Notes: generated by a model from the sequence alone, not told the origin. 55,204 nucleotides of DNA, filler included, from Asterionella formosa (GCA_002256025.1; 4 parts of 4 records of this genome joined end to end with filler, not necessarily neighbours in it); one strand, 5' to 3'. Positions 24,640 to 55,204 are shown, numbered from the whole stretch's first letter. Numbers and translations are program-made.

Positions 24640-25130
24640 ACAAGAACTTGAGGATGCTATCCAGGTGCTGACCATAGACTGTGACCTCCATCCAGAAGGT
24701 CAAAGGTGAAGAGTTGGGTATCTTGCAATGCAGCCATAGTGGCGCTGGTGACGATTTTTGTTTCCATTGTCCCTGCTGGTCGATAAGTGGAAGTCCTTTG
24801 GGCTGCCACTTGGTGAAAAAATGGCCAAATGCAACACACAAACTTTGTTGTCGTCGAAACATGGACAAGTGACAGCAGAAAGGAACATTACCTTTTCGAT
24901 ATGATCTTTATCTCTTGTTCGCCTTGTGAGAGCCTCCTTTCCATGAGACAGATATATCTTCAACTTTTCCTCAGCAACAAAAATCCACTTTTCATCTATA
25001 TGGACCTGGTTGTAGAAGCCATTGTAATATCCAAACAGTCCTGGGTCGAAGTCAATGCCAGGGGAAGGATGTTCTTGATCGATTTCTGGAGAGAGGGAGT
25101 AACTGGTAGATACTAGTCTGGAATCATGAT
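24640..25130 (-). pseudogene. Degraded plant-type (DD39D) mariner transposase fragment
   Basis: VHIDEKWIF...KVMFLSAVTCP in ORF 24700-25197, then a frameshift to IWPFF...AAQRTSTYRPAGTMETK in ORF 24657-24839. These are characteristic DD39D motifs. Confidence 0.75.
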
Positions 25131-25484
25131 AAGTAGGGCTCCTTGATTTTTCACATTCCTTGTTCGTCATTGCCAATCTTGATTTTAAGATATGCACTTA
25201 ACCGATTCCATCATACCACCAATGAAATATATTATATATAGCTAGCTACTATGCATGACCAATTTATATTTGTTGGTGAGATGTAAGGCTAAAAAAGAAG
25301 ACATTCATGCAGATGAGCACACTCCAAAGTAAACGCTAACAATAAGCCATTTATCACATCTAGCTACTAAGTCCTGCAAGGAAGTGGTTGTGACAGGTGA
25401 AGGATTAGCAAAGAAGAGGCAGGAAGGGGTTTACATATTCGGACAAGGCTTGAATATAGCTATCTCATCATTGTTTTGCTCATT

Positions 25485-26204
25485 NNNNNNNNNNNNNNNN
25501 NNNNNNNNNNNNNNNNNNNNNNNNNNNNNNNNNNNNNNNNNNNNNNNNNNNNNNNNNNNNNNNNNNNNNNNNNNNNNNNNNNNNNNNNNNNNNNNNNNNN
25601 NNNNNNNNNNNNNNNNNNNNNNNNNNNNNNNNNNNNNNNNNNNNNNNNNNNNNNNNNNNNNNNNNNNNNNNNNNNNNNNNNNNNNNNNNNNNNNNNNNNN
25701 NNNNNNNNNNNNNNNNNNNNNNNNNNNNNNNNNNNNNNNNNNNNNNNNNNNNNNNNNNNNNNNNNNNNNNNNNNNNNNNNNNNNNNNNNNNNNNNNNNNN
25801 NNNNNNNNNNNNNNNNNNNNNNNNNNNNNNNNNNNNNNNNNNNNNNNNNNNNNNNNNNNNNNNNNNNNNNNNNNNNNNNNNNNNNNNNNNNNNNNNNNNN
25901 NNNNNNNNNNNNNNNNNNNNNNNNNNNNNNNNNNNNNNNNNNNNNNNNNNNNNNNNNNNNNNNNNNNNNNNNNNNNNNNNNNNNNNNNNNNNNNNNNNNN
26001 NNNNNNNNNNNNNNNNNNNNNNNNNNNNNNNNNNNNNNNNNNNNNNNNNNNNNNNNNNNNNNNNNNNNNNNNNNNNNNNNNNNNNNNNNNNNNNNNNNNN
26101 NNNNNNNNNNNNNNNNNNNNNNNNNNNNNNNNNNNNNNNNNNNNNNNNNNNNNNNNNNNNNNNNNNNNNNNNNNNNNNNNNNNNNNNNNNNNNNNNNNNN
26201 NNNN
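25485..26204. other. Assembly gap, 720 N
   Basis: Plain run of N without the stop cassette. Confidence 0.95.
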
Positions 26205-27561: not shown

Positions 27562-27661
27562 NNNNNNNNNNNNNNNNNNNNNNNNNNNNNNNNNNNNNNN
27601 NNNNNTTAATTAATTAANNNNNNNNNNNNNNNNNNNNNNNNNNNNNNNNNNNNNNNNNNNN
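27562..27661. other. Artificial contig linker
   Basis: 44 N + TTAATTAATTAA + 44 N. Confidence 0.95.
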
Positions 27662-28955: not shown

Positions 28956-31472
28956 TTAGGATGGCTGATTGACATGTAGGGCACCATAAGATAACCTGAG
29001 TCTCAGGTGCAACAAAAGGAGTGGCTAGGATCTCCAAGGCACGTTTTCAACCTTTCACATGCAACCTTTTGTGCTTCAAACATTTGTTGATAAAATGGGC
29101 AATTGAAAGTCATTGTAAAAAAATTTCTTAGCTAAATTAATATTCTTTTCATGATGACAATCGACCAAAGCGAAATGAGGGGTTGATTACTGTCGTTTTG
29201 ATTTTCAACTAATTATTTTAACAGTTACACATGTTTCTTTAACATCAAATTCCAAAAAAACAACACAAATATCCATGGTGCTGACCTACATTGATGAATT
29301 TCGTAAATTGGTGGTCCTCGTAATGGTAGACTCGTACAACACTGCAGACAGCCCCAGTATTTGAATGTGTACATTTTACTGTAGGTTGGTATATTCTTTT
29401 CGTTAATGAGCACAACAGTGTCTGTGTCCATTTTTAATGAATTAAATTTTCTTTTTGCAGCATCATCCTTGCACCTCATAATTGAAAAATCACGCCACCA
29501 AAAGGAAAATTTACAATGACAATAATTGACTCTGTGTGGTAATTTTGAAGCATTTTGAAGCAATGGTACTTCTTTCTGATCGTTTCCTTCTCAACCCCGT
29601 ACGTCCATCTTAATTTATAGACTTACATGAATATATTCAAGATTCAATCAAGAATGGGGGTCATTCTTTTAAAGCCCTTATTGTCGGTGATGTTTTGGTA
29701 TGCTGTTTTTGTTTCTTTTTTGCCTTTGTTCCACATTCTGGCTGAGTGAGCTATTGCTTCTCAAACTTCTACCGCCTCCTTCCTTAACTATATCCATTTA
29801 GGAATGAATTTTCAAGATTCAAACGAGAATGGGGATCGTTTCCAAGCCTCTTTGGTGGCGCTTTTCTTGGTATATTGTTTTCGTCTCCCTTTACATTTCC
29901 TCTTTCAATGAAGTCCAAAAAAACATTCAGTGATGAGCAACACATTTGATGGCATATCTAGTGAATCAATGAATAAGTAAAAAAAGGTAGTAAGGATGAT
30001 GAATGCAACGTTGATTCAAGCAAGGGCAAAGATTTCTGATTTTAAAGTCTCACTTTTATACTTGTCCCAGCCACCCTTGTTGTTATTCTCAGCAGATATT
30101 ACCACATCCAAACCATTATTGCTTGCTTCTTCGTCTTATTTATCTTTTCCATCGAGATTCAAGAAGAGCTGATGAACTGAGAGCGCTCCGGTTTTCAGGA
30201 GGCGTTGAAATAAATGTTTTCCTAGCTAAGACAAGCTAGGAGGAGAATGCTGCCCAATTTTGGCGTTGCTCTACTGCCTTTCTTTGCTTTAGGAGTGCCA
30301 GCATGATAGTTGCTTTGTTGCTGGGAATAAAATAGATTGTACACACTTAAGAATATTTACAACTATTAAGCAGCTGCTTGTATTTGGTTTGATTTCATTT
30401 GGATTTAGAATATAAATGATTTTTGCGAACAATATTTTTGTGGTTGAGGATCAAGAAATTATTCAATTGGAAGTACAAAAAAATGTCAGTTGGCCAATAA
30501 TGAAGGAAGTTATCGAAACTATTCTAGCTCACTTTTATCATATATATTGTATGATGAATAACATTTTATATGTGATGTCATGCCCTTAAACTATGTACGT
30601 AGCTAAGTTCGTCATTTTGGGCCGCCACCAAAATTATGAATTTGGGTTTTCTTTTTTGACTAGCGTTTTTTGTGGTGGTTTTAACAGTAATCAGCGTTGT
30701 AGATGAAACACATTATTACGTCTCAGTCAATCTGCAGCATGCACTTGTGATCAGATCAAGGGTTGTCTTCTGCAGCAGCAAGGGAGATTCCCTTTCGAAC
30801 ACCATATAATGTTTGCAAACATTCAAAACAAGCTTGATATGTTAGAAACAAAACTTGACTCAATTACAAAGGAGATCGAGATTATGTTTACACATATGAG
30901 GACAAGAAGGAAGCGCAAAACTGTGGTTGATGAGTACAGCTCCTGATTCACTACCATCTGGTCCACGGTCATGGATGATTGTTGGATGAGAAGAATTGGT
31001 TCTTGCAATTAGTATAGAGAAATATGTTAGAGTTTGCGAAATTGGTTGATTACAATGGCAAAGCGCACAGACCAATCATCTTGGTTCTTACCTTATTTCA
31101 TATTGGAGATGTCAAAAAGCATTTTATTTTCTGATAAACAAGCTAGACAACTTGTGTGAGCGTTTGCAATGAACAAAAGGCAAGAAATAAATGAAATAAC
31201 AATCAACATCATACCAATATAAGCGCCAGCAAAACAACCTTGACAACGACCTCAAGAATTCGTCGGTGAATCTTGAATTTTCTTTCATGAGAAGCTGTAA
31301 TTAAGAAAGGAGTAAGAGGTGTAAGAAGTAGAAGATCAGAAAGAGTCACAATCACATCAAACTGACCATGCAGAAGCAACCTTCATCATGGCGATTTCTT
31401 ATTTTGGCATCATTTTACAATTTATGTGGCGCAAGGATGATGATGATGATACTAGGGTACTGGTACCAGGTA

Positions 31473-34400
31473 CCAGTAAAAAACTGCCGTGACCCATTGA
31501 ACGCAGAATAACACGTCTTGCTGTCAAAACTTTAGTAAATTTAAGTTCTGAGAGTTCTGGCTCCTTCTCGAGCATGTAGGCTAGTCAGCTATGTATTTTG
31601 TTTGAGATTTGGAGTCAATTGTTCATCTCAATAGATTGCCGGAAATAGTGAATCGACAAAAAATCATAGAGAACACGGATTACGGTAAGTTTGGAGTTCT
31701 CATTGTCATATAATATACAACGATATGTACAAATATTTCGACATTGATTTAATTAGTGTCTGAACGTTAACCACATTTATAGCAATAAAGATTTTGTTTT
31801 GGTATTGAATTGTACAGAGATGGCAAATGATATGGGCGGGCCTATATCTGATTGAGGATTTTGATATATACGTATCTGTCAGTCCACAAAACATGAAAAA
31901 CAGTAAACAGCTATCACGCAAACCAGCATCACCATGCCGAAGTCAAGAAAAAGTCGAGCTTCCAGCATCAAGAAGGAGACAGAGGCACTTCATTATGCTC
32001 AGGTCGTTATTCAACGCAACATGCTTGGCATTGTTACAGAACTTGAAGCAATCAAGGCGAACAATAATGGAAAGCTCCCATACGGAGCCATTACCAACAT
32101 GGTGAAGGCTCAGAAGGTATACTTGCCTTGGCTTACCAAAAAAAAGTCGACTACTGGTTACGAAAGGCAGGTGCTAGTGCTGTCCCCAACATGGGTATAC
32201 TATCAGGAGATTCTCAGGCAGATATGCGCTCATTTTACTATTCAAGTAGTAGAACATCTACTTTGACAAGAGAAGAGGAGGATGACAAGCAACATGACAG
32301 TGGATGATAATATCAATGCTATTAATAGTATTGAATTATTTTCTACAACTATGACTACTGCTGCAGTTAGTGTTCCTGCAGTCATTCCCCATTCTTACTG
32401 GAGGCCGGCCAAAGGGAACCACTCAAATGGCATCAGCATCGATGCAAAGAAATATCGAAGAATGCATTGTCCAGTCGGCCACAGAATACATGAGGGCTAG
32501 AGAAGAAGTGCAGCAAAAGAACAAGAAATCAAGTAGATTCACACTTGCCTGCATAATTGGGGGGAGAAAAGAGGCGCTTGGTATTCCTCTTGGAGTTGAA
32601 ATAAATATAGAAACAGTGAGATCTCGGGCAAAACGCAAAAAACCCCAGGGAAAAACGAAGCTTCAACGTCACCAATGCTCGAAGTTGAGCCATACATTAT
32701 TGTGCTGATTGAACAACTCTCCAAAATGCGAGTCCCAATTACATGTCGGCAGGGACTGGAACTTGCTAACTCACTTGTGTCTGGTAAATCCATCATGGAA
32801 AATATTGTGCTGTGGAGGCAGAAACTTTGCATTTCATTCAGAGAGGATCCAATATTGTCTAAACCACTGGGATCAGGGTACTGGAGGAGATTCATGGGTC
32901 GCAATTGGCTTCATGTCAAGGCAAAGAAAGGTGTCAAATTCGATGGGAAGCGTGCTGACTGGTGCACATTAAGGAACTTTGAGCAGATGTATAGCAGAGA
33001 TGTGTATGAAGAAATGGCCAAGATGGGTATTGCGGAAAAGCTGGATGAAGAAGTGTGGTTGAATAAATCAGGAGATGTTGTTGCAAATGAGGAAGGAGCC
33101 CTGGGAATGAAAACAAAGTACATTTTGAAGCATCCCAACAAACTCATATTTGTTGATGAAGTCGGAAGTAACACCAGTCAGGCAAAAGATGGACAGAAGG
33201 GGGGTGAGAAAGTGTTATGTATTGGAACAGCGGCAAGACCACAACAACGAAGTGCTATGAAGGATGCGCATTTTACAGACTTGGGATTTACAGCTGCCGA
33301 AGGAACTCCAGTGATGTGTGCTATAATTTTTGCTGCCAAAGAGCTTGAAGTTAGTTGGGTACAGGGGCTTAACCCGTTTGTGGAATGGCATGGCAATGAG
33401 GACGACTTCAACCTAACAAACACTGGTAAAAGAAAAGCGATATCCCCAGGGACCTGTGTGTGTGCTAAATGGAAAGCATGTGCCCACTTTGTGTTGTTGT
33501 TCGGAATCAGGAAGCATTACTGCAGAAGTGTTGGTGAGAATGTTGGCCCAAATGGATTCTTTGGAATTGTTTGACCGCAGTGATGGATTAAACCCTTTCC
33601 TCATCCTAGAAGGACATGGCTGGCTCCAGATTCGATTGCTCCTTTCTCGAATATATCAACAGCCCTTTGACCCCATGGAGTGTGTGTATAGGTGTCCCTT
33701 ATGGAACCTCCTACTGGAAAGTCGGAGATTTGTCGGAGCAGAATGGAAGTTTCAAAATGGACATTGTTGCCCTTGTTTCAACTGCCTGGGGGAAAAGCTT
33801 TGCAAATAAAAGAACAAACAGAAAAGCAGTCTCAGAATGAGGATGGGGGCCTCTCAACTATAACCTTCTGCTCACTGCGGAAATGCAAAATACAAGCACT
33901 CAACTCAATTCATCACTTGCTGGAACCACAACCAACTCGAATGTAACACCTGAAATGCTGAATCTGACAGACGGATATTCTGGGTCATTGACAGAAAAAA
34001 TTGTTGCCTTTCGCAAGAGAGAATATGCAAGGGATGGAATAGATGCTGATGATCATGCAAGGAAACGAAAGGAAACAGCACATGCTGCAATAGATCAACA
34101 CAAAAGGATTTCTGCTGGACAACACTTTGCTGCTGGTAACTGTCAACTTGGTCCAGAACTTTGGTATCATGCAAAAGAAGTTATGAAAATACAACAGCTT
34201 GCACAAGACGAAAAGGAAAAGCGAGCAAATATTCGATTTCAAACAATGGTGGACAAGGTTGATGCTGTGAGAGCAACTGGAAAGCTGATTGAATCATACA
34301 ATGTCACTGAACTCAGAACTCTTAATATTTGGTATAAACGTGAGGGTGATGCAACAGTACCAAATACAAGGCAACAGCTGCTTCAAAGGTACATCGACAC

Positions 34401-34853
34401 TTGCCATCAAGGGGAGCAGATTCCACGAAATGCACTTGCTGCAGCACAGCTTCCTGATCCTCAGCATGCTGCTGAAGATGCAGGTGATGCTGTGACCAAT
34501 GGGATCGCAATGATCTGACCATTGGATTTGAAAGTTGGAGGAGCATCATGATGGTGGAAGGTGCGGCATCTTGAATATATGTTTTTAGTAAAAAGGTGTA
34601 ATGAAATAAAAGTGCATGAACACATGACCTAATTCGTCCTCGAAAATGTATATAAATTTATAGACATTTATTCAGAAAAAAGTATATACTGCCATGACCC
34701 ATTGAAATCACTTCTTAGCTGTTTTATTATCATCGTATCGATACTGTTCTGACACTATCGAACAGATGGGTCCGAAATTCGATAGAATTTACCTTTAGTC
34801 GGAGAAGTCAAACAAGCACCCTAACTGAAGGGGTCATGGCAGTTTTTTACTGG
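31473..34853 (+). mobile_element. Full-length pogo-like DNA transposon (3381 bp) with TIRs and TA target duplication
   Basis: TA|CCAGTAAAAAACTGCCGTGACCC ... GGGTCATGGCAGTTTTTTACTGG|TA. An extra TIR-core copy ACTGCCATGACCCATTGAA lies at ~34688. Contains a transposase. Confidence 0.9.
31934..34518 (+). pseudogene. Frameshifted pogo/DDE_1-type transposase
   Basis: Successive ORFs in shifting frames: GGRPKG, a CENP-B-like HTH (LGSGYWRRFMGRN), FVDEVGSNT (first D), LILEGHG (second D altered) and GDLSEQNGSFK (third D). Confidence 0.8.
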
Positions 34854-35819
34854 TACCAGGTACAAACAAGTCTATGATTAGTTAATTAAATATGGGCGCG
34901 GTCAATTGTGCTCATTTCCTAATGAAATGTACCAGACTCCTCTAATTTAATAAAACGAACACGCAAACGAAACTGGCGCAGTCTGCAGTGTTATACGAGT
35001 GTACCATGAGGACCTCCAATTTTACCACCATTCAACAACCAGGTATCTGTACCAGGCAGATACCAGGATTAAAAAGGTACATGAGGAAGAAAGTAAGGCT
35101 GCTGGTACCAGATCAAGTTCTTTCAACTAATATCCTGCTCTCGTGACTAATTCATTTACTACATGCATCTATATTTGTGAAATAGTAAGGATATTTGTGG
35201 TGTCTTATTTCATGCATGGACAATCTACAGTTTATAGTTGTGCACTGCACATAAATAATATGAACTATTATAGTGAACAAGATTTCTCGTCGAGGTTTTC
35301 ATGTGATGGTTCAGAATCATACAGTGATTTCCAAGACAAAACTACCAGTAGTTGATGTTACAACTACATATTTTTAAACTTCAAGATAAAATTGTTTTGG
35401 AGGATAAATAATTGCGAAAGACAACTCATCGTATGGTACATATGCCAAAAAGGTATGAATTGGCCAAGAAATGACAGTAAAAAGAGTTTTCGCCATCCTC
35501 ATGCACCAAATCGACGCAACGATACTAAGCATCGCCGCTGAAGGCTGAAAAAAAGGAAGCATTGCTTGTCAATGTAAAATTGGCAAATTGAACTTGCACT
35601 ACGCCAAAGAAATGCGGACTCGAGAGAGTGTCCTTCAGCGCTTATCAGAAGCACTCATGCGATGATAGCTAACCAAGTTTAGTACTGGTACAAGCAACCC
35701 GAGTGCATGTTGTTGTCTTGCGCTGTGTCGTGGCTCAGTTGTTCTAACCCCTTGGCGCTTTTCCCCTCAAATACTCCATCCGTACTCACGATTGGTAGAA
35801 TAATTTATCTCTGCAAGGA

Positions 35820-41384: not shown

Positions 41385-41484
41385 NNNNNNNNNNNNNNNN
41401 NNNNNNNNNNNNNNNNNNNNNNNNNNNNTTAATTAATTAANNNNNNNNNNNNNNNNNNNNNNNNNNNNNNNNNNNNNNNNNNNN
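41385..41484. other. Artificial contig linker
   Basis: 44 N + TTAATTAATTAA + 44 N. Confidence 0.95.
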
Positions 41485-42008
41485 TAAGAAGTGGTATACC
41501 AGTATATTTCTCCGATGGTGCATGTCGTCTTCTTGCGTGAAAATCATGAAACAAAGAGGAATGTCCACGTAAACTCTGGTACCTGGTACTCCGCCTAGTA
41601 GAAAACAGATGTGGCGATTTGCCGCGACTCAAGTACCGGGTTCCTCATAAAAGGTGCTGAAAACACGTCATAAAGGAATCTTAGCCTATCTCTCCCCCAC
41701 CTTCATCTTTTTCGATATTTCTTCTGATGTATTATACAATATATCCATTTATTGTAATTCATATGTTACCTTGCCGGCGTTTTACTTTGAAGCAAATTCA
41801 TATATTACCTTGCCGGCGTTCCATTCCACAATTTACAGCACAATACGGTACCTGTACTAGGTAGTTGTCTCAAATGCATAAAAAGTAAATGCTCGATGCT
41901 GGACCACTGCTGCATTGCTTAGTTCACCATGATCATGGTTCATCCTCTCATTTTCCCCAATGAAGACACAAGTGATTCTCGTAATGAGGACGCTCAGCAA
42001 CAGCGCCA

Positions 42009-42680
42009 ATGACCCTCAGTCCAGCCGGGTATTTTAATGTGTCAGATCGCTTGGGTGTGGCATTTGATAGCAAAATAGACGTCAAGCATCGTGGCAGTGA
42101 GAACAAGATGATTGGAGATTTCATTGGTGATGAGCCTTCGCATAAGATCAGTGAAAAAGTACTTGAAGATACCAATAATGACAACGGCGGCGATGTTTAG
42201 ATTGGTGGCACTACTGTACAACTGAAAGATCCCAATGGTACAGTTGTCATGTCAACCATGACTGACTGCAATGGTAACTTCACGTTGAATGCTTCTCCAG
42301 GCATGTACACAATTGTCAAACAGACACCTCCTGGATTCGTCAATGTTGGCAGCAGCACAATTTCTGTAAATACAAGTGCTGCAAATGTTTTGAACATTCA
42401 TTTCGATGACCAACACCCCATCAATACTCCCAAGTGTGAGTGGCTGCCTCTCCAGTTACTTTTTGCTTGGATCAATTTCCAGAAGTGTCAAGGATGATAC
42501 CAACAACAATGATACTAGTGAAGACACTAACTTGGTAGGTGTGACTGATACTCTATAGGGTCCAAGTGGTAATGGCCCTATTCTATATACTACTGTTACT
42601 GACTTCAATGGCGACTTTGTGTTGGTGAATTTGCCTAATGGCAATTATTTTGTTAAGAAGATCATCATATCAGCCATTTC
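42009..42680 (+). pseudogene. Disrupted SdrD-B / Cna-B-type repeat surface protein
   Basis: ISEKVLEDTNNDNGGDV*IGGTTVQLKDPNGTVVMSTMTDCNGNFTLNASPGMYTIVKQTPPGF, and a second repeat DTNNND...TTVTDFNGDFVLVNLPNGNY. In-frame stops and a frameshift. Confidence 0.65.
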
Positions 42681-42744
42681 TGACCAGAAAGTATGATATG
42701 TAGATCTGAAATCAATAAAGTTGATTTCTACACCATCCTATACT

Positions 42745-43260
42745 ACGTTTGATCAAAGCATATTGATCATATGATCAATGGTGTCATTGAAATGAGAAAA
42801 TGAACTATCCAAATATATTTTAAGTTGCAGGATAAATTGATATTTAAAGTAAGATTCAATGATGATCCTAAATGTATGGTATTCAGTTTTCCACTCCGCT
42901 GTATTAGGGTAGCACTCCCATCACACAAGAAAATACCATGTATGCTGGTGTAGGTCCTGACTTTTTTTGTAGTTGATCTATATATATATTCAAATTAATA
43001 TATGATTTTTACCATATAAAAAATAGCTGTATGACTCTTGCTAATTGAGGGGCCTATCAGGTCGTGGAAATCAATGATATCATCATGCGTTGCATAAATT
43101 TGAATAATGTATAAGATTCACTGATGATAGTATACACATGATGTGCGATGTAGTAGTAAAGAGTATCTTTGAACTATGCAAATGTTTCTCTGTATATATA
43201 TATATATATAAATTTCATAATTTTATAAATGTATAGCTAGTACATGGCTGGCTAATACAG
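42745..43260. repeat. Inverted partner of the 22500-22905 repeat
   Basis: Block-wise reverse-complement similarity. Carries an extra ~180-bp segment (~42815-42990). Confidence 0.65.
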
Positions 43261-43669
43261 TTGCTGCATCATTTCTATACATACATCCTGTTTGCCATTC
43301 ATAAATATTCTTGCTTGTATTTCTTTAGACACAGGCACTGATATTTTAGCTAGTATTGCATACATCCATCGGCGTTTATTTCCTTAGTATAGCATCTTCT
43401 ACTAACAGCTAGCTGTAAATACAGGGAACATGTGCACAACATCCAACTACTAGCCAGGCTGCTTGTCCATTCAAAGAAACATTTTTCGGAGGCAATAAGA
43501 CTCTATATATATTCTCATGATAATCAGGTAGTGCTTATATACAGAGTTTTTAACATCATGCGAATATTACTGGATTTTACATATATTTTGTGTATTTATA
43601 AAAGAACAGTACATGGTACATGGTAAAGTACAAGATACCAGGTACCAGGTACCAGTACCTGGTACTGGT

Positions 43670-44867
43670 AATTATAAAATGATAATCTGTTTTATAGCCC
43701 ATTCATACTCCCCTTTTCAAGGCAAGTATTCATTGTGCTACCTGCGAACACGACATGTGCTTCCCTGGTTTTGTTAGCATAGGTGAGTCCCCAACCACCT
43801 TTTGCAAAAGTTGATTGTCTTAGCCACAGCATTAGGGGAAACTCTGACTGCCTAGGAAGGCAGCACAAGCTGCTTGTAAGGGGGCAATCCCACCATATCT
43901 TGCACACTAAGCAAGACCTAGAGGGACAGTAAGGAGTGTGGGAGTCGAACCCAACAATAATAAATTGCCGGAATCAAACCACACAACTTCAGATCATAGG
44001 CATTGTGCTCAACCAACTACCAGGTACCTCTGTCTAGTAACAGTTGCATCGATTCGCCGGCACCACCAATGTCTTTACTGTTCGCATATGAAGGATTATG
44101 TAGCCTACATACTAAATTTCTACGTGTGGGTCGGCTTACTCGAAAAAATGCGTTTTTTATGAGTTACATAGACGTGAACATATACTCGGTTTCTGTAATT
44201 AAATTTTTAGCATAAAATAAATAAATCGAAACCAATTTAACATACGTATATACATTGCATACGTATACCTATCGCCAACTGCTGTTTCACATCGGCCGGC
44301 CAGTCAAATATTTGCGGGAAACCAGATACAACAATCCACTATCATAATTATAACATAAATAGAATAATTGTCGTTTTGTATACTTTCTACGGTTGTTTAA
44401 CCTACCGGTACTTGGACCATGCCACCTGATGTTTAACGGTTACAAAACTCAAAACGAGCATACCGTCGTTTTCTTCCTTCCCACCATCGCCACTTTCGGG
44501 GTCGCACATTCCATAATTGAACGCAAGTTTCAGTTGTTCAACTGTTATGTCGTACTTTGTACGTATGTTGAGAATAGATGGTTCGAAGAAAAATGGGTCC
44601 TCATGCATCTCCATTTTGCTCGAGATAGCTACAAGTGAAAATCGAAAAATCCCAAAAACGTTTTTTTCAAATGTAGTTGCCAATTTTAGTATTATTATAT
44701 ATAATGTATACATGATTCTGTAGCTTAGAGCAAGCCGAACAATAGGGCAACTGAGCCGGAGAAAATCGTAGGAGTCAAAATGGCCCCGGATAAATTTGAA
44801 TTATCGATGCAACTGTTACTAGACAGAGGGAGTACCGGGTACCTGGTACCCGGTAAGCCATTCCCTC
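43670..44867 (-). mobile_element. tRNA-derived SINE (~360 bp) interrupted in its A-box by a MITE and four 7-bp insertions
   Basis: The reconstructed head GAGGGAATGGCTTAGTTGGTTGAGCAC...GTGGTTTGATTCCGGC has tRNA layout (A-box, decayed B-box). A second B-box-like GGTTCGACTCC lies at ~43941-43951. The 3' body recurs at 23342-23516 and ends AT-rich. Confidence 0.65.
44027..44832. mobile_element. Stowaway-like MITE / non-autonomous mariner (806 bp)
   Basis: TA|CCTCTGTCTAGTAACAGTTGCATCGAT ... ATCGATGCAACTGTTACTAGACAGAGGGAG|TA. The right end reads CTCCCTCTGT on the other strand, the Stowaway/DD39D terminus type; the left end lacks 3 nt. No ORF. Confidence 0.85.
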
Positions 44868-45389
44868 GGGTACCCTGGTACCAGGTACCGGCATATACAT
44901 CGACAACACGCTCATTTTTCCTGAACCAAAGTTCTTTCTTCATACAAAAAATCGGGTGTGACGACTCCGACCAAAAGCAATTATCGTATGTAGCAATTGT
45001 ACTTTGTTCAAAATTTATTTGTCTGTTCTACATGGAGGTAGAATTTATGGCATGCCCTTATTTTACCGTTGCTTGCTGCGCTATGTATGACCAAATTAAT
45101 GCACAATGCACAACGCCACCACACAAAGCACAAATGCCCAGAGTTATACATGTAGCTATTACGCGGTGGCATCAATGCTCTCCCTCCGCCCCTTTGTTGT
45201 CCTGTCCATATTTGATGCTGAACGGAAAGAACCAAGCGGCCCGGTCCACCTATCCCTTGCTTACTTCTTGGATTGCGTCCATTAAAATCCTGTCCACATC
45301 ACTTCTCATTGGTTTTAGGGGCTCATTGAACATCGCCGATAAAAGGTCTTGAGGTCTAGCCAGGGTCACCGTAGTTAGCGACAAAGGAA

Positions 45390-47267
45390 ATGGACGAGTC
45401 GGAGGGAGAATACTGCAAGAGCAGAATGACGACCATTTCTGATTATCAAGCAGTAGGAGATGATTTCAAACAAGGTCACGAAACTGAGTCTCTGGGAATA
45501 AAGCAAATGGCTTCCAAGTGCACCAAGGTGTTTCAATCATCAACAGAGATGTCACCAAAAACCGTAGTCGATCCCAACAAAACCCCGATTGCAACATTGT
45601 CCAAGTCTGATTCAATTCGAAGGACTCTTCGAGAGAGGGAAAAGAGATTAAGCGCTTTGGTGAAAGAAAGCAGCTGGCGTTTGAACAGTGTAAGCGATGG
45701 GGTCCCTCCAGAAATGCCGATGACTGATTCGATTGAATCTGGTTTTATTCCGGACAAATTACCGCCCATGATATTTGAAGGTAAAGAAGAATCGGATCGA
45801 AATGAAGCCATGAAAACCTTATCTAAAGCTATTTTGACTTTAAAAGGGAGACTCGAACAAGAGAAATCGAAAACATACGAATTGAAGAAAGAGGTCGCTG
45901 CCAGGAAGCTGTCATTTCAACGGAAGGGGATAGAAGCTCTGGGCCTTGTATCCGAGACGAGAAAGTTGAAGGAAACAAACGAAAAATTAGAGGAGGAAAT
46001 GGTACATTTGAAAGAACAGTTGGAGGAACATCAAGCTGTGGTGAAGAACATTCAAGCTGAAAATTTTATGTTTAAGCGAGAGGAAGTGTCTCTTCGGGGC
46101 CAGCTTGTCGTTGCCAGACAAAAAATTCAAAGTGACTCTACTTCCCAGAGAGAACATCTTGATTTCTTAGAATACGAAGTTCTGTCCAAGAACGAGAAAA
46201 TTGACAACTTGAAGCAGGAACTGAACGAAAGACTTAAGCGGATTGTTGAGCTAGAGGTGGCGCTAGAGACTCACAGCCATCGCTACCACGAATCATTTAT
46301 GGAATGGGTTAGAAATGATGGAGCCATGAGTTATGGAAACGTAGATACCGGTGCAGCTTTGATGGATACACCGCTAGGTCAGGATCCACCGGAGATTTTG
46401 AAAAAACCTATCTTGACTCAGGGTATCTCTCGATTCTTTCGTCGCTTGAAAAGCAAGAATAAAATCGGAAGAAATCAACAATTCTTTTTTCGCACAGCTG
46501 CACCAGGCAACCTTGAAATCCGCTTGCGAAGTGAAATAGCAAGCTTGGAATCCAGATACATTCGCGATCAGTTCGCTGCCAAGATTAAGATAGAGGAGTT
46601 GAAACAAGAAAACAGCGAATATCGGATCCAGATTCTTTCTACTTTAGAGCTTGCGTCTACCCAGCAAGTTGGACCCATGAATGCTGGATCCTCTCACCCG
46701 ATCTCAAGTCTCCCCTCCCGTACACGCTTTCTTGAAGAAAAGGTCGCGTCCCTCGAGAACGAGCGAACACTTCAGTCTCGATTAAATGAAAATCTCAAAA
46801 CTGAAATAGTTCGGCTTGAGGTCAACTCCAAGAAGCAGTCACAGCTAAATGAAGAAGTGTTGCAAAACCTTCGCCTCGATAACGAAGTGAAAGATGTCAA
46901 GTTGTCAAGCTTTGAACATGAACTAAGAACGACCACAGAAAAGTCATCAGACTTCTCAAATTATATCATGCAGTGCAATACAATTTCTGGGCTAGAGGCA
47001 AAGCTTCGAGAGAGCTTCACGGAAAAATTACGTCTGCATCGGGAGGGCGAAGTCAAAGACATGACGATTAATGCACTTCGCCAAGACATTGTGGGACTTC
47101 GAATACAGTTGTTTAAAAACCAAGACGAAATTACACATTCCGGACAAGAGGTTGTAAATCAAGGACTAACTTATCGGGATATGGATACGATGCAATCTGG
47201 TGTCTGTAACCATATGGAATTTCAGGCCTTGCCTGCCGTTAAGCTGTTACATGTTCATAATGAGTGA
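45390..47267 (+). CDS. Long coiled-coil hypothetical protein (625 aa)
   Basis: Uninterrupted ORF with E/K/L-rich heptad character. No catalytic motif recognised. Confidence 0.75.
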   Translation: MDESEGEYCKSRMTTISDYQAVGDDFKQGHETESLGIKQMASKCTKVFQSSTEMSPKTVVDPNKTPIATLSKSDSIRRTLREREKRLSALVKESSWRLNSVSDGVPPEMPMTDSIESGFIPDKLPPMIFEGKEESDRNEAMKTLSKAILTLKGRLEQEKSKTYELKKEVAARKLSFQRKGIEALGLVSETRKLKETNEKLEEEMVHLKEQLEEHQAVVKNIQAENFMFKREEVSLRGQLVVARQKIQSDSTSQREHLDFLEYEVLSKNEKIDNLKQELNERLKRIVELEVALETHSHRYHESFMEWVRNDGAMSYGNVDTGAALMDTPLGQDPPEILKKPILTQGISRFFRRLKSKNKIGRNQQFFFRTAAPGNLEIRLRSEIASLESRYIRDQFAAKIKIEELKQENSEYRIQILSTLELASTQQVGPMNAGSSHPISSLPSRTRFLEEKVASLENERTLQSRLNENLKTEIVRLEVNSKKQSQLNEEVLQNLRLDNEVKDVKLSSFEHELRTTTEKSSDFSNYIMQCNTISGLEAKLRESFTEKLRLHREGEVKDMTINALRQDIVGLRIQLFKNQDEITHSGQEVVNQGLTYRDMDTMQSGVCNHMEFQALPAVKLLHVHNE

Positions 47268-47446
47268 TAACCTGCGTTTAGGTAAGCGATAATTGGAGTG
47301 AGTTTATTTAAGATTCAGCGAGTCAGTTTATTTACAGTAAGCTACAAACAAAATTGTTAGCAAGAGAATCAATGCTAAGTTAAAAGATGTCATAATGGAT
47401 TATATTGTATACGTCGCTATTCAATGGCACTTATCATCATGCTGTG

Positions 47447-48472
47447 TCACTCGAAATGGTCTTCTACCTTGGTCAGGACCACTGTTTTCATTCCTGTATC
47501 CACCTCGACTGATGTCATGGCTCCCGCTTCCATCTCCGCTGCCGCCAAAGCCTCAAGATCTTCCTTTGCCTTCGCAGCTTCTTTTGCTTCGAGAGTTGCC
47601 TCGGCCTTCGCATGTGCAGTAGAAGCTGCAGCTTCCCTTTGAACAACTTGCAAGTTCTCGCTTAGCTGCTGAATTGTCTGGCTTTGTATCTCATGCGTCT
47701 GCGTCAATTTCTCCAAACGACTCTCGGCTTCCTCTAATTCCTTCTTCAAATCAACATCGGTTCCTTCGGAAGCAGCCCGATTCTTAAGGCGTTCCATCTC
47801 CTGTTGATTCTTCTTGATTTGCTCATCATAGTCCCTCTGCATGTCCTCCTTTTGTTCTTCCAACAAATCCAACTGTTTGCGCAACTCAAGTTCTGTACGA
47901 CAACGGTCTTCCACAATCTCGGTAATTTCTGACTTTAAAGACGTAACAACTTCATTGCAGGACTGCTCGACCAGTTCCATCTGTTGAGAAGTTGCCTCCA
48001 TCTTCTTAACGGCCTTCGCCAACTGTGCCTGCAATTTCATAACGTACTGGCTATCCACACCAGACTTCGGGGCGACGCCCTTGATCAGGTTAGCATACTC
48101 ATGAATGGCTTCCTTGTCTTGCATATCTCTTTCAAGCGCTTCGAGGCGCTCTTCCATAGCCAGAGTCTGTCGCTGCAAACGGTCTGCTTCGAGTCGATGC
48201 AAAATGGCTTCTTCCATTTGCTTCAAGCGTTCTTCTTCGAGTTCCTTTTGAAGGGCAGCGAGTTCCTGTTCCTTCTCTAGGCGTTTCTTCTCCATTCCAC
48301 TAATGGTCGAATCGCGAGATCTGATTGTCTTTTCAAGAGTGTTTCGTGACAGGTCTTCCTCGTCGTCATCTGCCCCAGCGAAGGCGCTAGGGCGGATGTC
48401 GCCTTGCGAAGTACCTGCTGTAGTTGTGGGCCGATTAGAAGATCGAGTGAAGTTTGATATCTGGCGAATCAT
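47447..48472 (-). CDS. Coiled-coil hypothetical protein (about 341 aa from ATG 48472)
   Basis: Uninterrupted E/Q/K-rich ORF; first ATG follows an AACAAC context. Convergent with 45390-47267. Confidence 0.75.
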   Translation of the reverse strand: MIRQISNFTRSSNRPTTTAGTSQGDIRPSAFAGADDDEEDLSRNTLEKTIRSRDSTISGMEKKRLEKEQELAALQKELEEERLKQMEEAILHRLEADRLQRQTLAMEERLEALERDMQDKEAIHEYANLIKGVAPKSGVDSQYVMKLQAQLAKAVKKMEATSQQMELVEQSCNEVVTSLKSEITEIVEDRCRTELELRKQLDLLEEQKEDMQRDYDEQIKKNQQEMERLKNRAASEGTDVDLKKELEEAESRLEKLTQTHEIQSQTIQQLSENLQVVQREAAASTAHAKAEATLEAKEAAKAKEDLEALAAAEMEAGAMTSVEVDTGMKTVVLTKVEDHFE

Positions 48473-49199
48473 GTTGTTGTTGATTGGCGTACTTGTGAGC
48501 GATCGTAATAGGGCTTTGTGTGTACCTGATGGTGCCCTGATACCAAACACTTCAGCCTTGTTTGTCAATGATCAGCCAACCGAAATGAAGATGACTGCGG
48601 GAGTACAGCGACTGATATTCTCTAACGACTTCAAATACTCCTAAATACCACAAAACTTCGTGTTATTTCTGTGTGTATAGTGTCGATTATAGCTACTAGG
48701 AATGTTGCATGTACGTAGTGCATACAGTTGGAGCTATGTTTTTTCAGTACCAGTACCCACGATGGCACATTCAAACACGACATGTTAATCTCCGCCAATT
48801 GCAGGCTCCCAGATCCTTGGAAAAAACCAATACTTGATGGAACAAGCGGAATCAAAGTACTGAAGCCAAGAGATATTCTGATGCTAGTATTGGAACTTGA
48901 CGATGCTGGTGGCAATGCTGAAGGAGGTCTTGGCATGCATCTGCTGCATTGGACTTGACTCAATTTTAAATCTAAAAAGGAGCTCAAAATTTTGTTAATA
49001 CAAAATTGAAGAACAGTTATTTCCAACTGAGACATATCCTCATGAGAATTTGTCATTGTCACTTGAGGCCAAACTGTTCCAAGATGAAAGTATGTTGACT
49101 TGGTTGGTGGGTCAGATGTAACAGATAACAAAACGTTTGTTTGATCTGTTGCTACCACCTGACGTTTTAAAACATTCCAGGACTCCATCTCCAAACGGA

Positions 49200-49750
49200 A
49201 TTGTGCCCGGTTGCCAAGAAATTTGGTTTTGCCATTTCTTTTTAGTTTCAATAGAGTTTCCAATACTTTCACAATTGTAAATGGTCCACATGACCATCTG
49301 CTGTCATCTTCTGGTTGAAATAACATGGAATCATGTTCAGTGGCCATCAGGACAAGCGATCTGCAATGGTGCTTTGGTGCCAGTATAGAAAGATTCTGAT
49401 AAACCAATTTCTTCAGGTGTTTGGTATTCTTGTGGAAGATATCCTGTATCAGTGCATAACAATTCCAATTGTTTGGTGCATCCAGGGATGATGCAGTACC
49501 AGTACTTACGGGCAAGATGAAATAATTGATCCAAATGTTCATCCAAACTTGCATCTTTTCCAGGATCACAGACTTGACATAATCCATCATTTATAGCAAA
49601 AAGATAATGCACAAAATGGTTGTTTTCCTCCTCATCTAATCTTTTGCAATAGACAATTAGCACATAGTTACTGTCATGATGAAGTGGATGACAATCACCT
49701 TGGTATATATAGTTTGTTATTACCCTTTTCTGGCTTCTCCTCCAGATCAA
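49200..49750 (-). pseudogene. Possible Ulp1/C48-like cysteine peptidase remnant, probably transposon-borne
   Basis: YVLIVYC...NHFVHYLFAINDGLCQVCD (His to Asp 17 residues), then after a frameshift QPEDDSRWSCGPF (Gln...Cys). This is the order of the C48 triad. Confidence 0.4.
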
Positions 49751-51370
49751 ATATAACCTTATATAACCTATACATCAGTTGGATGAAGTTCATGAATTAT
49801 ATAATGGATCATAGAGCAAGGTAATTGTTTCAAGGTCCCAACATGCAAGATCTTTAAAATCTGAAGATGATTTTTTGATACCTTTGACTCCATAAAATAC
49901 AGAGGTGTAATTGCATATTTCTTGTGGGGTACATGTGTACAAATCTTTCCACAATTTTAGTTGTCCATGCGTTTTCGGCAAACTCAAGGAAAATGCAGTT
50001 TGCTTTGGCATAATAACTCTACACATTTCACAAACCGACTCTTCACAAAAGTAGCTAGCTGCCTTCGGGATTGTTCTCAATGATTTTACATAGAAATTCT
50101 TTTTCTTCCATGTATGATTTGGAAAAAAATTCAATGTTGTGCTTCAAAATTTGTTCCCCATTCAGTGCATCAACTGCCTTGTTGATTAGCCAACATCACA
50201 TCTCTGTCAGCATTGATCCTCTTGAATTCTTGGTCTTGATCTAACGCAGAATTTTTCTTGAATATGATCTTTTCTTTTAGAAATGCAATAGTTTCTCTGC
50301 TTTCATGATGTTAACCTTGATGTTCTGGACAAGTAGTGAGATACATTTCTTGGTTTTGCAACTTTTCAACCATTTCAACTTCAGAAGTGATGTCTCCCAC
50401 ATGGTCCATTACACTTTTTGCATAAAAGTGTCCGAAAATGCATAATGAGTTAATCAGGGAAACTTGGAATTACTTTTTTGAACTAAATTTGTAGCAAATC
50501 AATATTAATTTCTATCAATGATAGAAACTTTTCCTAGCCAAATTTTCAATGACTCTTTTTACTTAGTATATTGAAAATCGAAAAATAAAATAAATTTTTA
50601 CTACTGTACATTTTGTCAAGAAATCGGATGTATAGTGTATCAGATGTACTTACGTTTTCGACATAGAACACATCATACACAAAACAAACCTTGTATATAC
50701 TTTGTACATTCCGGATATATAGCGTTACATATTATACATGCTTAGCATACATACTACTGGGTACTACCAGTATTTGCATGTGTTTTTGTACAGCTGCCTG
50801 TGGTATGGGGTTGATGAGACAGCAACTCCATCTTGACCTTGACGAAATTACGGATTTGAATATCTTCACGAATATTGACAATTAACAATTCCTATTTCGC
50901 AAATGTATGAACACTAACATAGACAAGATTATCGTTGAATAATCAAATTTTTGCACTAGTATTGACAACAAAATGTCGAAATCAGCTCTGAACGTTGTTT
51001 TTGGTCGTCATTTGCTCAGTTTTGAAGATGGGACCAAAACGAGACACGGTTGAGTCCGCAGTGATTAGCTTGATAACTTTGACTAGATAAGGTTTTCTAT
51101 GTTTTGTAAAAATAGATGAGAAAACTTGAGCGACAATATTCTTGGAAAGGGCACAACATTTCAAGATGCAAGAAATACCTCAACGTCAATTTTGTCGTGA
51201 CTTTCATGTAGCTCCGGCTCCAGTTCACTACTACTCCCATCCGCCTCAAACACCTCGACACATATACACCAGTTCTGGTCCGCCGCCCGTCTGTGAATAG
51301 ATTTTCCATTAGATCTAACGTTTTACTCAGCATACGTTGAAAAACTGATTGATCATTCAAATATTTTGAC

Positions 51371-51720
51371 ATGTTGATGATAATTTTGATAAATCAACGG
51401 CAGTGTCTGTATGATCAATCAAATATGAACATGAGGATAGTAGCATACACATGTTAGGTTATGCGTATATAAGAACTCGTATATATTAGTCACCAAATCT
51501 AATCGGTTAAACAAAATTGTTGATGTATTGATCAAATGTTGTGTTATGTTGATGATAATTTTGATATAGCAATGATCGTGTTGGTGTGGTCAATCAAATT
51601 TTTTGTCAGATTATTTTCTTACACACGTCAGGTTACGCATAGATAGAATTCATATATATTATTGATCAAAACTAATATGCTAACCAAATGCTTTGATATA
51701 TTGATACGTTGTTTGATTGA
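51371..51720. repeat. Diverged AT-rich tandem repeat, 175-bp unit x2
   Basis: ATGTTGATGATAATTTTGATA at 51371 and 51546, with continued similarity downstream. Confidence 0.75.
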
Positions 51721-54018
51721 TCAATAGCTGTTGCTCTTTGATCATTTATTGTTTTAGCGAAGGTTATGACTTTACACAGATCACCTTACATGTATGTAAA
51801 CCTTGTACCCAACGATGCCATCAGAATGAATTCTGTGCAACAACGGTGCGCTCCTTATTGCCATTCCGATTTGAATGCTCTACCGGTACATGCTTTGATC
51901 CAATTCTTGTACCGGTAGTATTCGTCATTATCTCTCCATTTGCATATCAGTAATCGAATTTCTTACAAGCCTTGTGCGTTTATTGAACAATCCCTTACAA
52001 GCTACCTTCTTGCAGGGACGAAGATGATCTCAGTCTTATAACAAATGATATGGTCTCGATATTGATGGGGAATTATGCTGGCGAGGTTTGATTGTTTGTT
52101 TGTTACTCGAAATCAAAAGCTTTGGTCAATTTATACGACAGAATTGGAGAACGATGCATTGAAGGCCATACCCGATTCCAATTCCAACCGAAATCAAGAA
52201 GATTTTCCCTTTTGATCATAATTCGCCCATTGCGAACATCGATCCGTATTTCGAATCTGCTCTTCAAGATGAGATGTGAATCAAAGTGAAGATGGACCAG
52301 ATGGCGGCGCAGTTTGTTGCTCATGGCCTTAATCATGGGTCTTCCAATCTCATTGACTAGTAGCTATTGGCGAGCACATTTGTATGCTGCAGAATTAGAG
52401 CCGCAACATCACTAATCAGGAAGTAGCTTCATTTCATTCAGGAAAAAGTAGCATCACATGAACCTTGAATAGCAGGGGGTTCGAAATAACAATTGTAACT
52501 TTGCCTAATAACATTGTACCATCACATTGTTTTAAGAAATCTCTTTATCGGCAACATCAGAGGCACTATATAGGACAGCCAAACCCCATTGCCACACATA
52601 TACTTTCCACAAAGTGACCGCTTTATAAATATAGCTTATATATACGTAGTGTAGCTTGTCCCACACATATGTTCTTGCCACTCCGACGAAGTGTAAAATA
52701 TTTATGAGGGTACCAGAACCATTATTCAATCAATAGCTGTTTCCAATGTCTTACAGCAACAATGATGGTTGTCGAAATGAGTCCAATGATGTTGATAAAC
52801 TTCTCCGTTATTGGGGTGTTTCAAATGATCCCTGTATTGGTGCTGGTATTGATACAGAAGAAAAGAGGAACAAGCTTCTGTGCACCATTACAGCCACATT
52901 TTAGAAACATCGCCAAAATTGGGAAACTCTTTTTCCTGACAAGCCGATGGAATTCGTCATACCTGTCAATCCAAGAAAAGATCACCGACGTTGTGTATTC
53001 TCCGTTTATGCATTGACACAGGCGAGTGAAGACGAAATAGTTGATGCCAGTTCATCTTCTCCCAATACCATTCCAAGAAGTAAAGATTGTGTTGCTTGTA
53101 TGCCCGTGGTAGATCTTATTTCTACTTCCTCAGAGCGTCTAATTGAGTCTATCGAATCTAATAGACTTGATACAAAATCTCCCCATTACAAAGCAAAAGC
53201 AAAATGTAAATTAAAGACAACTCCAGGCATGGTTGCCAACCCGGAAGAAGCAGTCCATGACTTGTCACCAAAGAGTTCCGAAATTGTAGGAGTGATAGGG
53301 AAAGTAAATAAAGAACAGGTCAAGGAGGAAAGAAATTTGTCCCATTTATCCAGTAAGGAGTTAGAAATATTGAAACAGGACATGGTTGCCAGTCTGAATG
53401 TAGTTCATGGGTGCATTTGGTGGGATATTGTCTTCTTTCTGATGTAGTCTAAAATCTCGAGGAAAGTGAGTTTTCCATAAAATCATCGCTGGTCCTATAT
53501 GTTTCCGAAATTTCCTTGAAGTTTCAAATGATGCTTTGTTTAACAAGCCAGACTCTAGGACCACATAGAAGTTGAGAACAAAATCCAGGACACTTTCATC
53601 TAGTCTCTTTTTGTCATCTAGTCTCCTCTCCTTGCCTTTGTCATCATGATCAAAGTATCTAACCAGTAAGAGTAGTTCCTTACTCTTCTGTTGTCTCTTT
53701 AACAGACAACATGAATTACGCCATAGAAACACGTTTTTCCTGATTGAAAAATCTGCGATCGGTATCCCCTTCACAACCAAGATTGTTCCATTCCTTGTAG
53801 CAATCGGAACATTTGCCATTCCAGATAACAAGTGATATATGGCACTATCGATAGCGTGCAAATGTCAAGTCTTCAAGAAAAACGTGACTGTAACAGAACA
53901 AGGAAGCAGAAAAGGATAATGGTCTGTCAACTATAGAATTAGACAGTGGGCAAGTGCTGGATCAGAAGCGATGCAGCACCGACATTCTCAGTAATAGACA
54001 TTAGATTGGTAGCGCAAA

Positions 54019-54265
54019 GCTACAGTTTCATAGTACCTGGTACCAGTGTAGTAATAGGTACAGTTTCACTGTAGCCACATCATGTTCCGACCGTGTATTG
54101 AGACAAAGGAAAGAAGGGAATGCTGGTAGGGCAAACCTACAGTTTCACAGTATCCACGTCATGTTCCGACCGGGTATTGAGACAAGGAGAAGTAGGGACT
54201 TCTGGTATGGCAAACCTACAGTTTTACAGTACCAGCGTAGTAATAGGTACAGTTTCACAGTACCG
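54019..54265. repeat. Compound tandem repeat (~79-bp unit x2 flanked by a duplicated ~45-bp block)
   Basis: TCATGTTCCGACCG.GTATTGAGACAA occurs twice. TACAGTTT.A.AGTA...GTAGTAATAGGTACAGTTTCAC occurs at both ends. Confidence 0.8.
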
Positions 54266-54829
54266 GTATTCGAATTCCTGTTAAGTCTTGGATATATTAT
54301 CTAATCATACATACTGGTAGGGCATTAAATGTTCCTTCAAAAATGTTACTAGACATACAGAGATGTATGTTATACACACTTTTTGAAGAAGAGGAAATTT
54401 TGAGATATTGTTAAAAAATTCATGCCGGTAATGCATTCTATTCCACATAAAAACTGATGAGGGAATGGTGATAGAGAGCCTTCTTCCGGTATCAAACCAA
54501 CCGGTGGGTAGAGGTAAGTTATATGATTGTTTTGCTTCTCAACTGTGGCTACCAAGGGGCTTATGATCAGTACCGTGTGAGACCGGAAGCAAACTATAAA
54601 ATTTTATTGCTGTTCGTGTGCCCTGCTACCACTCAAAAGTTTCTACACTTCCTCAGGAAAAACGATTAAATCAACCTAATTACGAGGTTAGAAACCGCAC
54701 TTAATATCTTTGTGCACAATGCTGCAGAGGGTTTGTAGTGTCTGTGTCCAATAATTTGGACTTCAACCTTAATAACATCTTTCCCTTCCATATATGCAGA
54801 TGTGAGGAATAACAACGCTACCTGTCACC

Positions 54830-55185
54830 CATCAATCAACAGTGAGAGCATAGGTAATTTACTATACTCTCATTTGATGCTCGTTATGTCGATTGGAACA
54901 TGAAGTTACTATAGAGATTGTTTATGTCATCAGTTTGTGGCACATGTGTGGCTGGTGATGCTTTAATCGTTGCAACACTTTTGCTAACATAGGAACCTTG
55001 GAGAATGTGGCTTGCTACCATTCTTAATGGAAGCAACAATCAACCATGAGAGCACAGGTGATTAATATGCTCATTGCCTGCTCATACGGAAATTGGAGTG
55101 ATGGATTGTTCATGTGATCGCTTCGTTGCACATATCTTCGTTTAGATGCCTTGCTTACTTGATGCAACAGTTTTGCTAACATTGT
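54830..55185. repeat. Diverged ~200-bp tandem repeat x2
   Basis: TGAGAGCA.AGGT.ATT and TGCAACA.TTTTGCTAACAT each recur about 195-203 bp apart. Confidence 0.6.
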
Positions 55186-55204
55186 TGTAATTATATCTTA
55201 CAGG

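Follow-up and report, generated by a model that had tools for sequence, protein, structure and literature searches.

Stacked TA-bounded CCNGG units interrupt a tRNA-derived SINE in Asterionella formosa: a probable record of Tc1/mariner-type excision

A 55,204-nucleotide (nt) stretch of DNA from the diatom Asterionella formosa (GCA_002256025.1; four parts joined end to end with filler, here called the window) contains a transfer RNA (tRNA)-derived short interspersed element (SINE) whose 5' head is separated from its body, at what was probably a single TA dinucleotide, by four 7-bp CCNGG-TA units and an 806-bp element resembling Stowaway MITEs (transposable elements of the miniature inverted-repeat type). 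The best reading of this locus, in which we place moderate confidence, is one of serial Tc1/mariner-type excision scars at a preferred target that the scars themselves made. The identification of the units as excision scars of this type, which the original prediction for this DNA had proposed, is well supported: they are bounded by TA on both sides, their inner bases match the CCAGT...ACTGG ends of a transposon resident in the window, and their shape is the canonical one described in PMC6943129.

On the plus strand, GTGCTCAACCAAC (44005-44017) is followed by TA (44018-44019), CCAGG (44020-44024), TA (44025-44026) and the 806-bp element (44027-44832), to the right of which stand TA (44833-44834), CCGGG, TA, CCTGG, TA, CCCGG, TA (44854-44855) and AGCCATTCCCTC (44856-44867). 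The string TA-CCAGG-TA-(806 bp)-TA-CCGGG-TA-CCTGG-TA-CCCGG-TA that had been claimed for this site matches the sequence base for base. Tandem Repeats Finder (TRF) returns a 7-bp period at 44832-44855. The features of the locus are as follows.

43610-43670, unstranded: array A1, parsed as ten TA-bounded units and abutting the 3' edge of the SINE (TRF period 7 at 43628-43665)
43670-44017, minus strand: SINE body and tail, with a B-box-like GGTTCGACTCC and a 3' tail in common with 23358-23516
44018-44019, unstranded: first TA, interpreted as a copy of the ancestral TA from the D-loop/A-box of the SINE
44020-44026, unstranded: scar unit 1, CCAGG+TA (TACCAGGTA at 44018)
44027-44832, unstranded: 806-bp non-autonomous Stowaway-like element with terminal inverted repeats (TIRs), TA on both sides, left end 3 nt short
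44833-44855, unstranded: TA, then scar units 2-4, CCGGG+TA, CCTGG+TA and CCCGG+TA
44856-44867, minus strand: 12-nt SINE head, which tRNA geometry assigns to the 5' acceptor strand, to positions 8-9 and to the first part of the D stem
44871-44897, unstranded: array A3 beyond the SINE head, TA-CCCTGG-TA-CCAGG-TA-CCGGCA-TA-TA

The interrupted SINE and its surroundings

To reconstruct the ancestral site, positions 44020-44855 were removed computationally and the tRNA geometry of the joined sequence was scored, with random 12-mers drawn from the window as the control. In the collapsed SINE the D stem is paired at 4/4 positions, with U at position 8, A at position 14 and G18G19 in their places; the B-box motif falls within a T arm with 4/5 pairs, and the first seven bases pair 5/7 with the stretch after the T arm. 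This geometry was equalled by 109 of 200,000 random 12-mers, and the minimum-energy fold pairs the first six bases of the head with a perfect complement slightly further 3'. Only once 44020-44855 is taken out do the internal RNA polymerase III (Pol III) boxes, A and B, stand at a tRNA-like spacing. The earlier claim of a single ancestral TA within a tRNA-like 5' end is thus backed by D-arm, T-arm and acceptor geometry reaching across the gap, and on this internal evidence it is quite likely that the SINE site was a single TA before the insertions.

ARAGORN at 60% stringency gave junk calls everywhere, including 13 'genes' in the uncollapsed control, and the best Rfam match, mir-1271 (23.6 bits against a gathering score of 80.5), was rejected as merely the palindromic array. 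A relative of the SINE 3' tail with 76% identity lies at 23358-23516, lacking both a head and an array at its end. Relative to that locus the interrupted copy has a 31-nt insertion near its 3' end; it also carries two B-box-like motifs about 30 bases apart (43940-43990). Of 24 listed sequencing runs, 20, from 14 studies, cover part of 42000-48000 as contigs, and four runs were compared; in all four the SINE is dispersed at high copy, as judged from contig depth and hundreds of contigs per position. At 43958 most contigs of the SINE family differ from this copy by a small indel.

The neighbourhood of the SINE contains two further arrays that were absent from the original prediction. Array A1 adjoins the SINE tail, and its units are given as CATGG, CATGG, AAG, CAAGA, CCAGG, CCAGG, CCAG, CCTGG and CTGG. 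On the other side, the array grammar resumes 3 bases past the 12-nt head as GGG-TA-CCCTGG-TA-CCAGG-TA-CCGGCA-TA-TA (44868-44897). Since arrays stand at both edges, the SINE sits within a GGTACC-rich tract, and the interrupted TA is not isolated, lying 12 bases from flanking array sequence. The outer part of array A1 (43610-43635) holds the other TA-bounded units, CATGG twice, AAG and CAAGA, which may be scars of other donors or products of aberrant repair.

The scar motif, its candidate donor and the resident element

The scar motif is strongly overrepresented throughout the window. The sequence GGTACCNGGTACC is found 17 times when at most one mismatch is allowed; the mean over 100 shuffles was 0.03, and none of them reached 17. 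GGTACC occurs 34 times where composition predicts 8, so that 34 of the 3,283 TAs lie within it. The sites comprise 22 TACCGGTA, 21 TACC[AT]GGTA, five TACC[GC]GGTA and 18 TACCAGTA/TACTGGTA; TACCGGTA and TACC[AT]GGTA are 46-49 times as frequent as a second-order Markov model expects. TA stands on both sides of 21/89 CC[AT]GG and 5/24 CC[GC]GG (chance predicting well under one), and of 22/106 CCGG. Under the strict unit grammar used for array counts, the window holds 66 units in 53 arrays, 47 of which consist of a single unit. When the three arrays holding intact element ends are left out, adjacent units are identical in one pair and different in eight; since 8 of the 9 pairs differ, simple slippage was rejected as the sole cause of the arrays. 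A separate word, TA-CCGGTAG-TA, occurs seven times (0.01 expected for the 11-mer), at 914, 12374, 13394 and 51912 on the plus strand and at 13496, 17528 and 39137 on the minus strand; the sequence that follows is unrelated at each, which marks the word as a longer insertion of stereotyped form rather than the end of an element.

A transposon whose termini correspond to the inner bases of the scars lies elsewhere in the window. It is TA-flanked and has 23-bp ends starting CCAGT (CCAGT...ACTGG), to which the CC[AT]GG scars correspond, and TACCAGGTA adjoins both of its ends. The features outside the SINE locus are listed here.

31473-34853, plus strand: candidate donor, a transposon of 3381 bp between TAs; its ends read CCAGTAAAAAACTGCC(G/A)TGACCC, and a decayed transposase frame lies at 32600-33574
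390-421, minus strand: third end of the donor TIR family (390-412, 2 mismatches), followed by TACCAGGTA
13499-13527, unstranded: a comparable four-unit array, CCGG, CCCGG, CCGGG, CCAGG

The donor frame has 39 homologues (E down to 1e-144) that carry the motifs FVDEVGSN, LLLDGHGS and WQVGDSxEQNG, which we take to resemble the catalytic motifs of pogo-like transposases. A sequence profile search of the PDB with the transposase returned noise only (E 1.1). The best and longest alignments of its predicted structure were to the mariner-family catalytic domains of Metnase and Mos1 (Z 9.1, root-mean-square deviation 3.8, 181-185 of ~201 residues), and Metnase was also the top Foldseek match (E 1.7e-3). 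From this model, the donor transposase family may represent an unclassified branch of TA-targeting transposases. Two further pairs of TA-flanked sites, 29327/35003 and 28373/28841, were discarded as ends of an element, since the inverted repeat continues through the TA. A long inverted duplication (29327-29370 and 34960-35003), the repeat of which passes through TA, encloses the 3.4-kb transposon.

All four central bases occur among the units of the SINE locus, from which at least two donor end types, CCA and CCG, had been proposed. This claim is not established. The window contains no CCG-ended donor, and the steps from CCGGG to CCAGG, from CCCGG to CCTGG and from CCGG to CCAG or CTGG are all those of CpG deamination, so two donor types are not required; one CCGG-ended donor followed by decay could contribute. 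Decay alone is insufficient for the excess of CC[AT]GG, since the ratio of CCGG to CCAG/CTGG (22:15) differs from that of CC[GC]GG to CC[AT]GG (5:21; Fisher p=0.002). Mechanistically, pairing of CCAG overhangs over CAG/CTG, with the central position mismatched, would give TACC(A/T)GGTA. CCGG overhangs would yield TACCGGTA by perfect pairing and TACC(G/C)GGTA by pairing with a one-base offset, which fits the observed 22:5 ratio.

The element still in place at the SINE locus is of a different kind. It has perfect 27-bp inverted ends at 44027-44053 and 44803-44829 (2 matches, 0 mismatches, 0 expected), and its TA target-site duplication is formed by the TAs at 44025-44026 and 44833-44834. The right end reads ...GACAGAGGGAG, in reverse complement TA-CTCCCTCTG or, at greater length, TA-CTCCCTCTGTCTAG. 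The left end, TA-CCTCTG or at greater length TA-CCTCTGTCTAG, starts CCTCTGTC and has 3 bases fewer than the right. An end of rice Stowaway, TA-CTCCCTCCGTCCC, is known from a primer in PMC3660474, and the right TIR start (CTCCCTC) of the present element, CTCCCTCTGTC, matches that CTCCCTCCGTCCC, the left end CCTCTGTC being 3 bases short. The absence of these 3 terminal bases may have immobilised the element. Because its ends are CTC...GAG, it cannot be the source of the CCNGG scars.

The 806-bp family is abundant. In run X1, where 14,284 contigs were aligned, the summed contig depth over 43606-44918 was 140,000-850,000, compared with ~1,000 for the unique flanks. This copy departs from the family majority at many positions and is thus not very young. 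Other copies have ...GAG-TA-CC in common and then diverge, as shown by loose ends at 44836 (9 contigs in run X6 and 5 in X8, agreement 0.43-0.5, among those listed). Family contigs that depart from this copy after 44797 have a common alternative continuation (25 in X1, 13 in X4 and 9 in X6, among those listed), so the body of the element is common to a family with a different terminus, perhaps a longer parent. Pfam recognised no family in the longest open frame of the element (132 aa), and no cognate autonomous element or transposase was identified for it in the window. Viral scans for other copies of this element and of the CCAGT-ended transposon gave 0 matches, and a related-loci search gave 34 pattern matches with 0 relatives among them. 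A relative of part of the 806-bp element (70-80% identity) lies at 24290-24453 and adjoins a 165-aa open frame (24700-25197); this frame was dropped as a candidate mariner-like transposase after Pfam gave only a sub-threshold match to zf-C5HC2.

Target choice, repair and competing explanations

Tc1/mariner elements have an obligatory TA target, neighbouring bases bias the choice among TAs, and re-insertion near the donor site is common; Sleeping Beauty prefers AT-rich palindromic sites. Compared with these preferences, the favoured context here is apparently G/C beside the TA (GG-TA-CC); since the transposons generate this context through their scars, it would be self-reinforcing. Among 100 flanks, G accounts for 45% and C for 31% of the bases just outside the scars, against 25.5% and 18.7% for all TAs (p=1.8e-5 for G). 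Both complete TA elements of the window lie in GG-TA-CC between two CCNGG units, and the third element end also abuts a CCNGG scar. In a neutral simulation, 63 events were placed on ~3,170 TAs with all TAs, including those made by scars, equally likely. Over 20,000 runs the probability of a largest array of at least 4 units was 0.0005, and three arrays of at least 3 units appeared in none. The observed arrays have 4, 5 and 3 units when the three with intact element ends are left out, and the 3 becomes 4 if the unit beyond the element is counted.

The self-reinforcing hotspot that had been postulated is therefore partly supported. Array sizes beyond the neutral model, G/C-rich flanks and the placement of both elements in GG-TA-CC speak for it; repair of several units in one event, or scars carried along by elements, would fit as well. 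A broader form of the idea is that the scars themselves are preferred landing sites (GG-TA-CC), used by at least two unrelated families, and that they ratchet single TAs into GGTACC-rich tandem tracts genome-wide; we hold this form to be tentative and rather doubtful.

These observations suggest the following course of events. A tRNA-derived SINE copy lies on the minus strand in a GGTACC-rich tract, its tail being close to 43670 and its head at 44867; the lone TA of its D-loop/A-box would have been targeted by TA-specific cut-and-paste transposons of the Tc1/mariner kind. Every insertion would have duplicated the TA. Later excision would have cut a few bases inside the element, leaving terminal CCA(G) or CCG(G) on the flanks, and joining of the two 3' overhangs across a central mismatch would have produced TA-CC-N-GG-TA, a net gain of 7 bp and one TA. 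If each unit stands for one event, four scars would have been stacked in some order, the Stowaway-like element still occupying the TA between scars 1 and 2. Each scar would make TAs with an outer G (GG-TA-CC), and since scars and intact elements in the window lie in this context more often than chance predicts, scars probably attract further insertions, in which case target preference would drive the stacking.

Other explanations must be weighed against serial scarring. A less likely one, to which we nevertheless give some room, is that few events wrote many units: one or two excisions may have been repaired by iterative microhomology-primed synthesis on self-complementary GGTACC ends, or slippage may have combined with point mutation, including CpG deamination. 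Several 7-bp units would then have been written at once, and the original count of at least five hits would overstate the number of insertions. The palindromic units can pair with one another, a multi-unit event explains arrays beyond neutral re-targeting equally well, and single CpG transitions connect CCGGG with CCAGG and CCCGG with CCTGG, the step from CCGG to CCAG/CTGG covering 15 non-terminal TACCAGTA/TACTGGTA sites. Such events fit poorly with the 8/9 adjacent unit pairs that differ, with the ratios of 22:15 and 5:21 that decay alone does not produce, and with the 47/53 arrays of a single unit; moreover, the intact element between units 1 and 2 demands at least one separate insertion into or beside an existing scar array. 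Units might instead be delivered by insertion, if scars adjoining an element mimic its end (TA-CCAG...), serve as surrogate ends and travel along, so that elements arrive already flanked by CCNGG-TA. All three CCAGT-family ends are directly followed by TACCAGGTA, with TA outside that unit too, and the donor inverted repeat runs through the unit (36 nt, 92%). We judge this very improbable as an account of the locus, where the ends of the 806-bp element are unrelated (CTCCCTC...) and the units differ by side (CCAGG and CCGGG); most units in the window are solitary with no element near (47 single-unit sites), and at each of the three ends one and the same strand carries A as its central base, unlike the prediction from an inverted repeat.

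The remaining alternatives concern the SINE head and the assembly. The 12-nt head could be a chance island, the SINE being 5'-truncated within a pre-existing GGTACC tract (43610-44897) that never had a single ancestral A-box TA. Arrays on both sides of the SINE, the short non-scar islands AAG and CAAGA inside array A1, and the failure of any tRNA caller to recognise the head are all compatible with this. The head nevertheless completes a D stem (4/4), U8 and D-loop spacing, pairs after the T arm as few random 12-mers would (109/200,000), and folds with its first six bases against a perfect complement further 3', which leaves a chance origin with little probability. An assembly artefact, in which high-copy SINE, MITE and array sequences were misjoined in a draft, is more improbable still. 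The window does consist of contigs joined by N44-TTAATTAATTAA-N44 linkers, which occur three times (13734-13833, 27562-27661 and 41385-41484) and look like six-frame-stop linkers, and it has a 720-N gap at 25485-26204; neighbourhood across those points is not real, and several arrays are close to contig ends. All three components are high copy, and the left junction (44017-44027) is spanned by no contig among those listed. The SINE locus lies wholly inside the piece 41485-55204. In X6, an independent run from another study, a 713-nt contig covers 44809-45521 with 0 gaps and 3 other letters. It takes in the end of the element, three units, the head, the second array and the unique flank, so this assembly did not create the right half of the locus. 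The head beyond the element also fits the body on its near side, which a false join would not produce. A contig of run X4 starts at 44869; parts of X4 and X8 that have no contig cover carry no information on alleles. In one X4 contig an 8-base insertion, CATCCTGG, stands behind 44928 and is absent from the window and from X6, a strain polymorphism that is not of the TA-scar type.

Several results weigh against serial scarring of a SINE at a self-made target. Neither the window nor, at default or 80% stringency, the collapsed sequence gave any tRNA with ARAGORN (0 in each), and an Rfam search of the interrupted window at E<=10 gave 7 weak matches, none of them to a tRNA or SINE. In the search for further SINE copies, a metagenome scan with a poorly chosen 19-mer gave six matches, all six by chance in bacterial-looking sequence, and scans of viral and prokaryote genomes with 19- and 20-mers gave 0. 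The ancestral TA had C and T as its flanks, and not the preferred G. On the side of the donor, the CC[GC]GG units have no matching CCG-ended element in the window; Pfam assigned no family to five donor frames, and one to 0/15 transposase family members; the transposase model is of low confidence (mean predicted local distance difference test score, pLDDT, 52.6); and retroviral integrase cores score within 1 Z unit of the mariner matches, over only ~128 residues. As TACCAGGTA directly abuts 3/3 ends of the CCAGT family, the unit could be carried along by the element and would not have to denote a preferred target. We also count here that no empty-site or fewer-unit alleles were found among the joints and indels listed, a result with no weight either way since contigs break at repeats.

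Relation to known systems and significance

According to PMC6943129, the cut that Tc1/mariner transposases make in the non-transferred strand falls a few bases within the element, and end-joining yields TAC(A/T)GTA for CAGT-ended Sleeping Beauty. The units described here resemble these TACAGTA/TACTGTA scars in being bounded by a duplicated TA, in having inner bases that equal the element termini, and in being palindromic with an ambiguous centre, which is explained by 3' overhangs and end-joining (PMC6943129). They differ by one extra C:G pair on each side, giving five inner bases (CC-N-GG) in place of the three of Sleeping Beauty (PMC6943129). In further contrast to Sleeping Beauty scars, all four central bases occur here, ~48 canonical sites are found in 55 kb, arrays reach up to 5 units, and intact elements lie inside arrays.

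The resident element is like plant Stowaway MITEs, as PMC3660474 portrays them, in its TA duplication, its right terminus TA-CTCCCTC(T/C)GTC, its lack of coding capacity and its very high copy number; the same paper has plant Stowaway MITEs mobilised by mariner-like transposases. It differs in its diatom host, in its length, 806 bp being long for a MITE, and in a left terminus without 3 bases. The SINE is similar to tRNA-derived SINEs of the SINE2 type in its A- and B-box-like motifs, the geometry of its D and T arms, its high copy number and the 3' tail that it has in common with the headless locus at 23358-23516, and is unlike them in being invisible to ARAGORN and Rfam, in the additional bases that separate the anticodon region from the T arm, and in the lack of an A-rich tail. 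A literature search, judged mainly from titles and abstract openings, found no paper on stacked scars or on these words as diatom transposon scars. Such scars, Stowaway-like MITEs and tRNA-derived SINEs are each known; what is new is the density of the scars, their five-base form, their stacking in arrays and their apparent re-use as targets.

Scars left by excision usually occur singly, are rare and are difficult to spot; here they are stereotyped and countable, at ~48 canonical sites in 55 kb. In diatoms, whose DNA transposons have received little study, they provide a fossil record of earlier cut-and-paste activity. The locus offers the SINE head as a substrate that can be dated, together with an element trapped within an array and a candidate donor, and it shows that a SINE's Pol III promoter box can be destroyed by transposon traffic. 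If scars attract insertions, transposition would build tandem repeats and concentrate insertions in harmless tracts, a new link between target choice, DNA repair and the birth of repeats. Were this true, it would constitute a transposon-driven route to minisatellite birth, and the self-made 'landing pads' would keep later insertions off genes.

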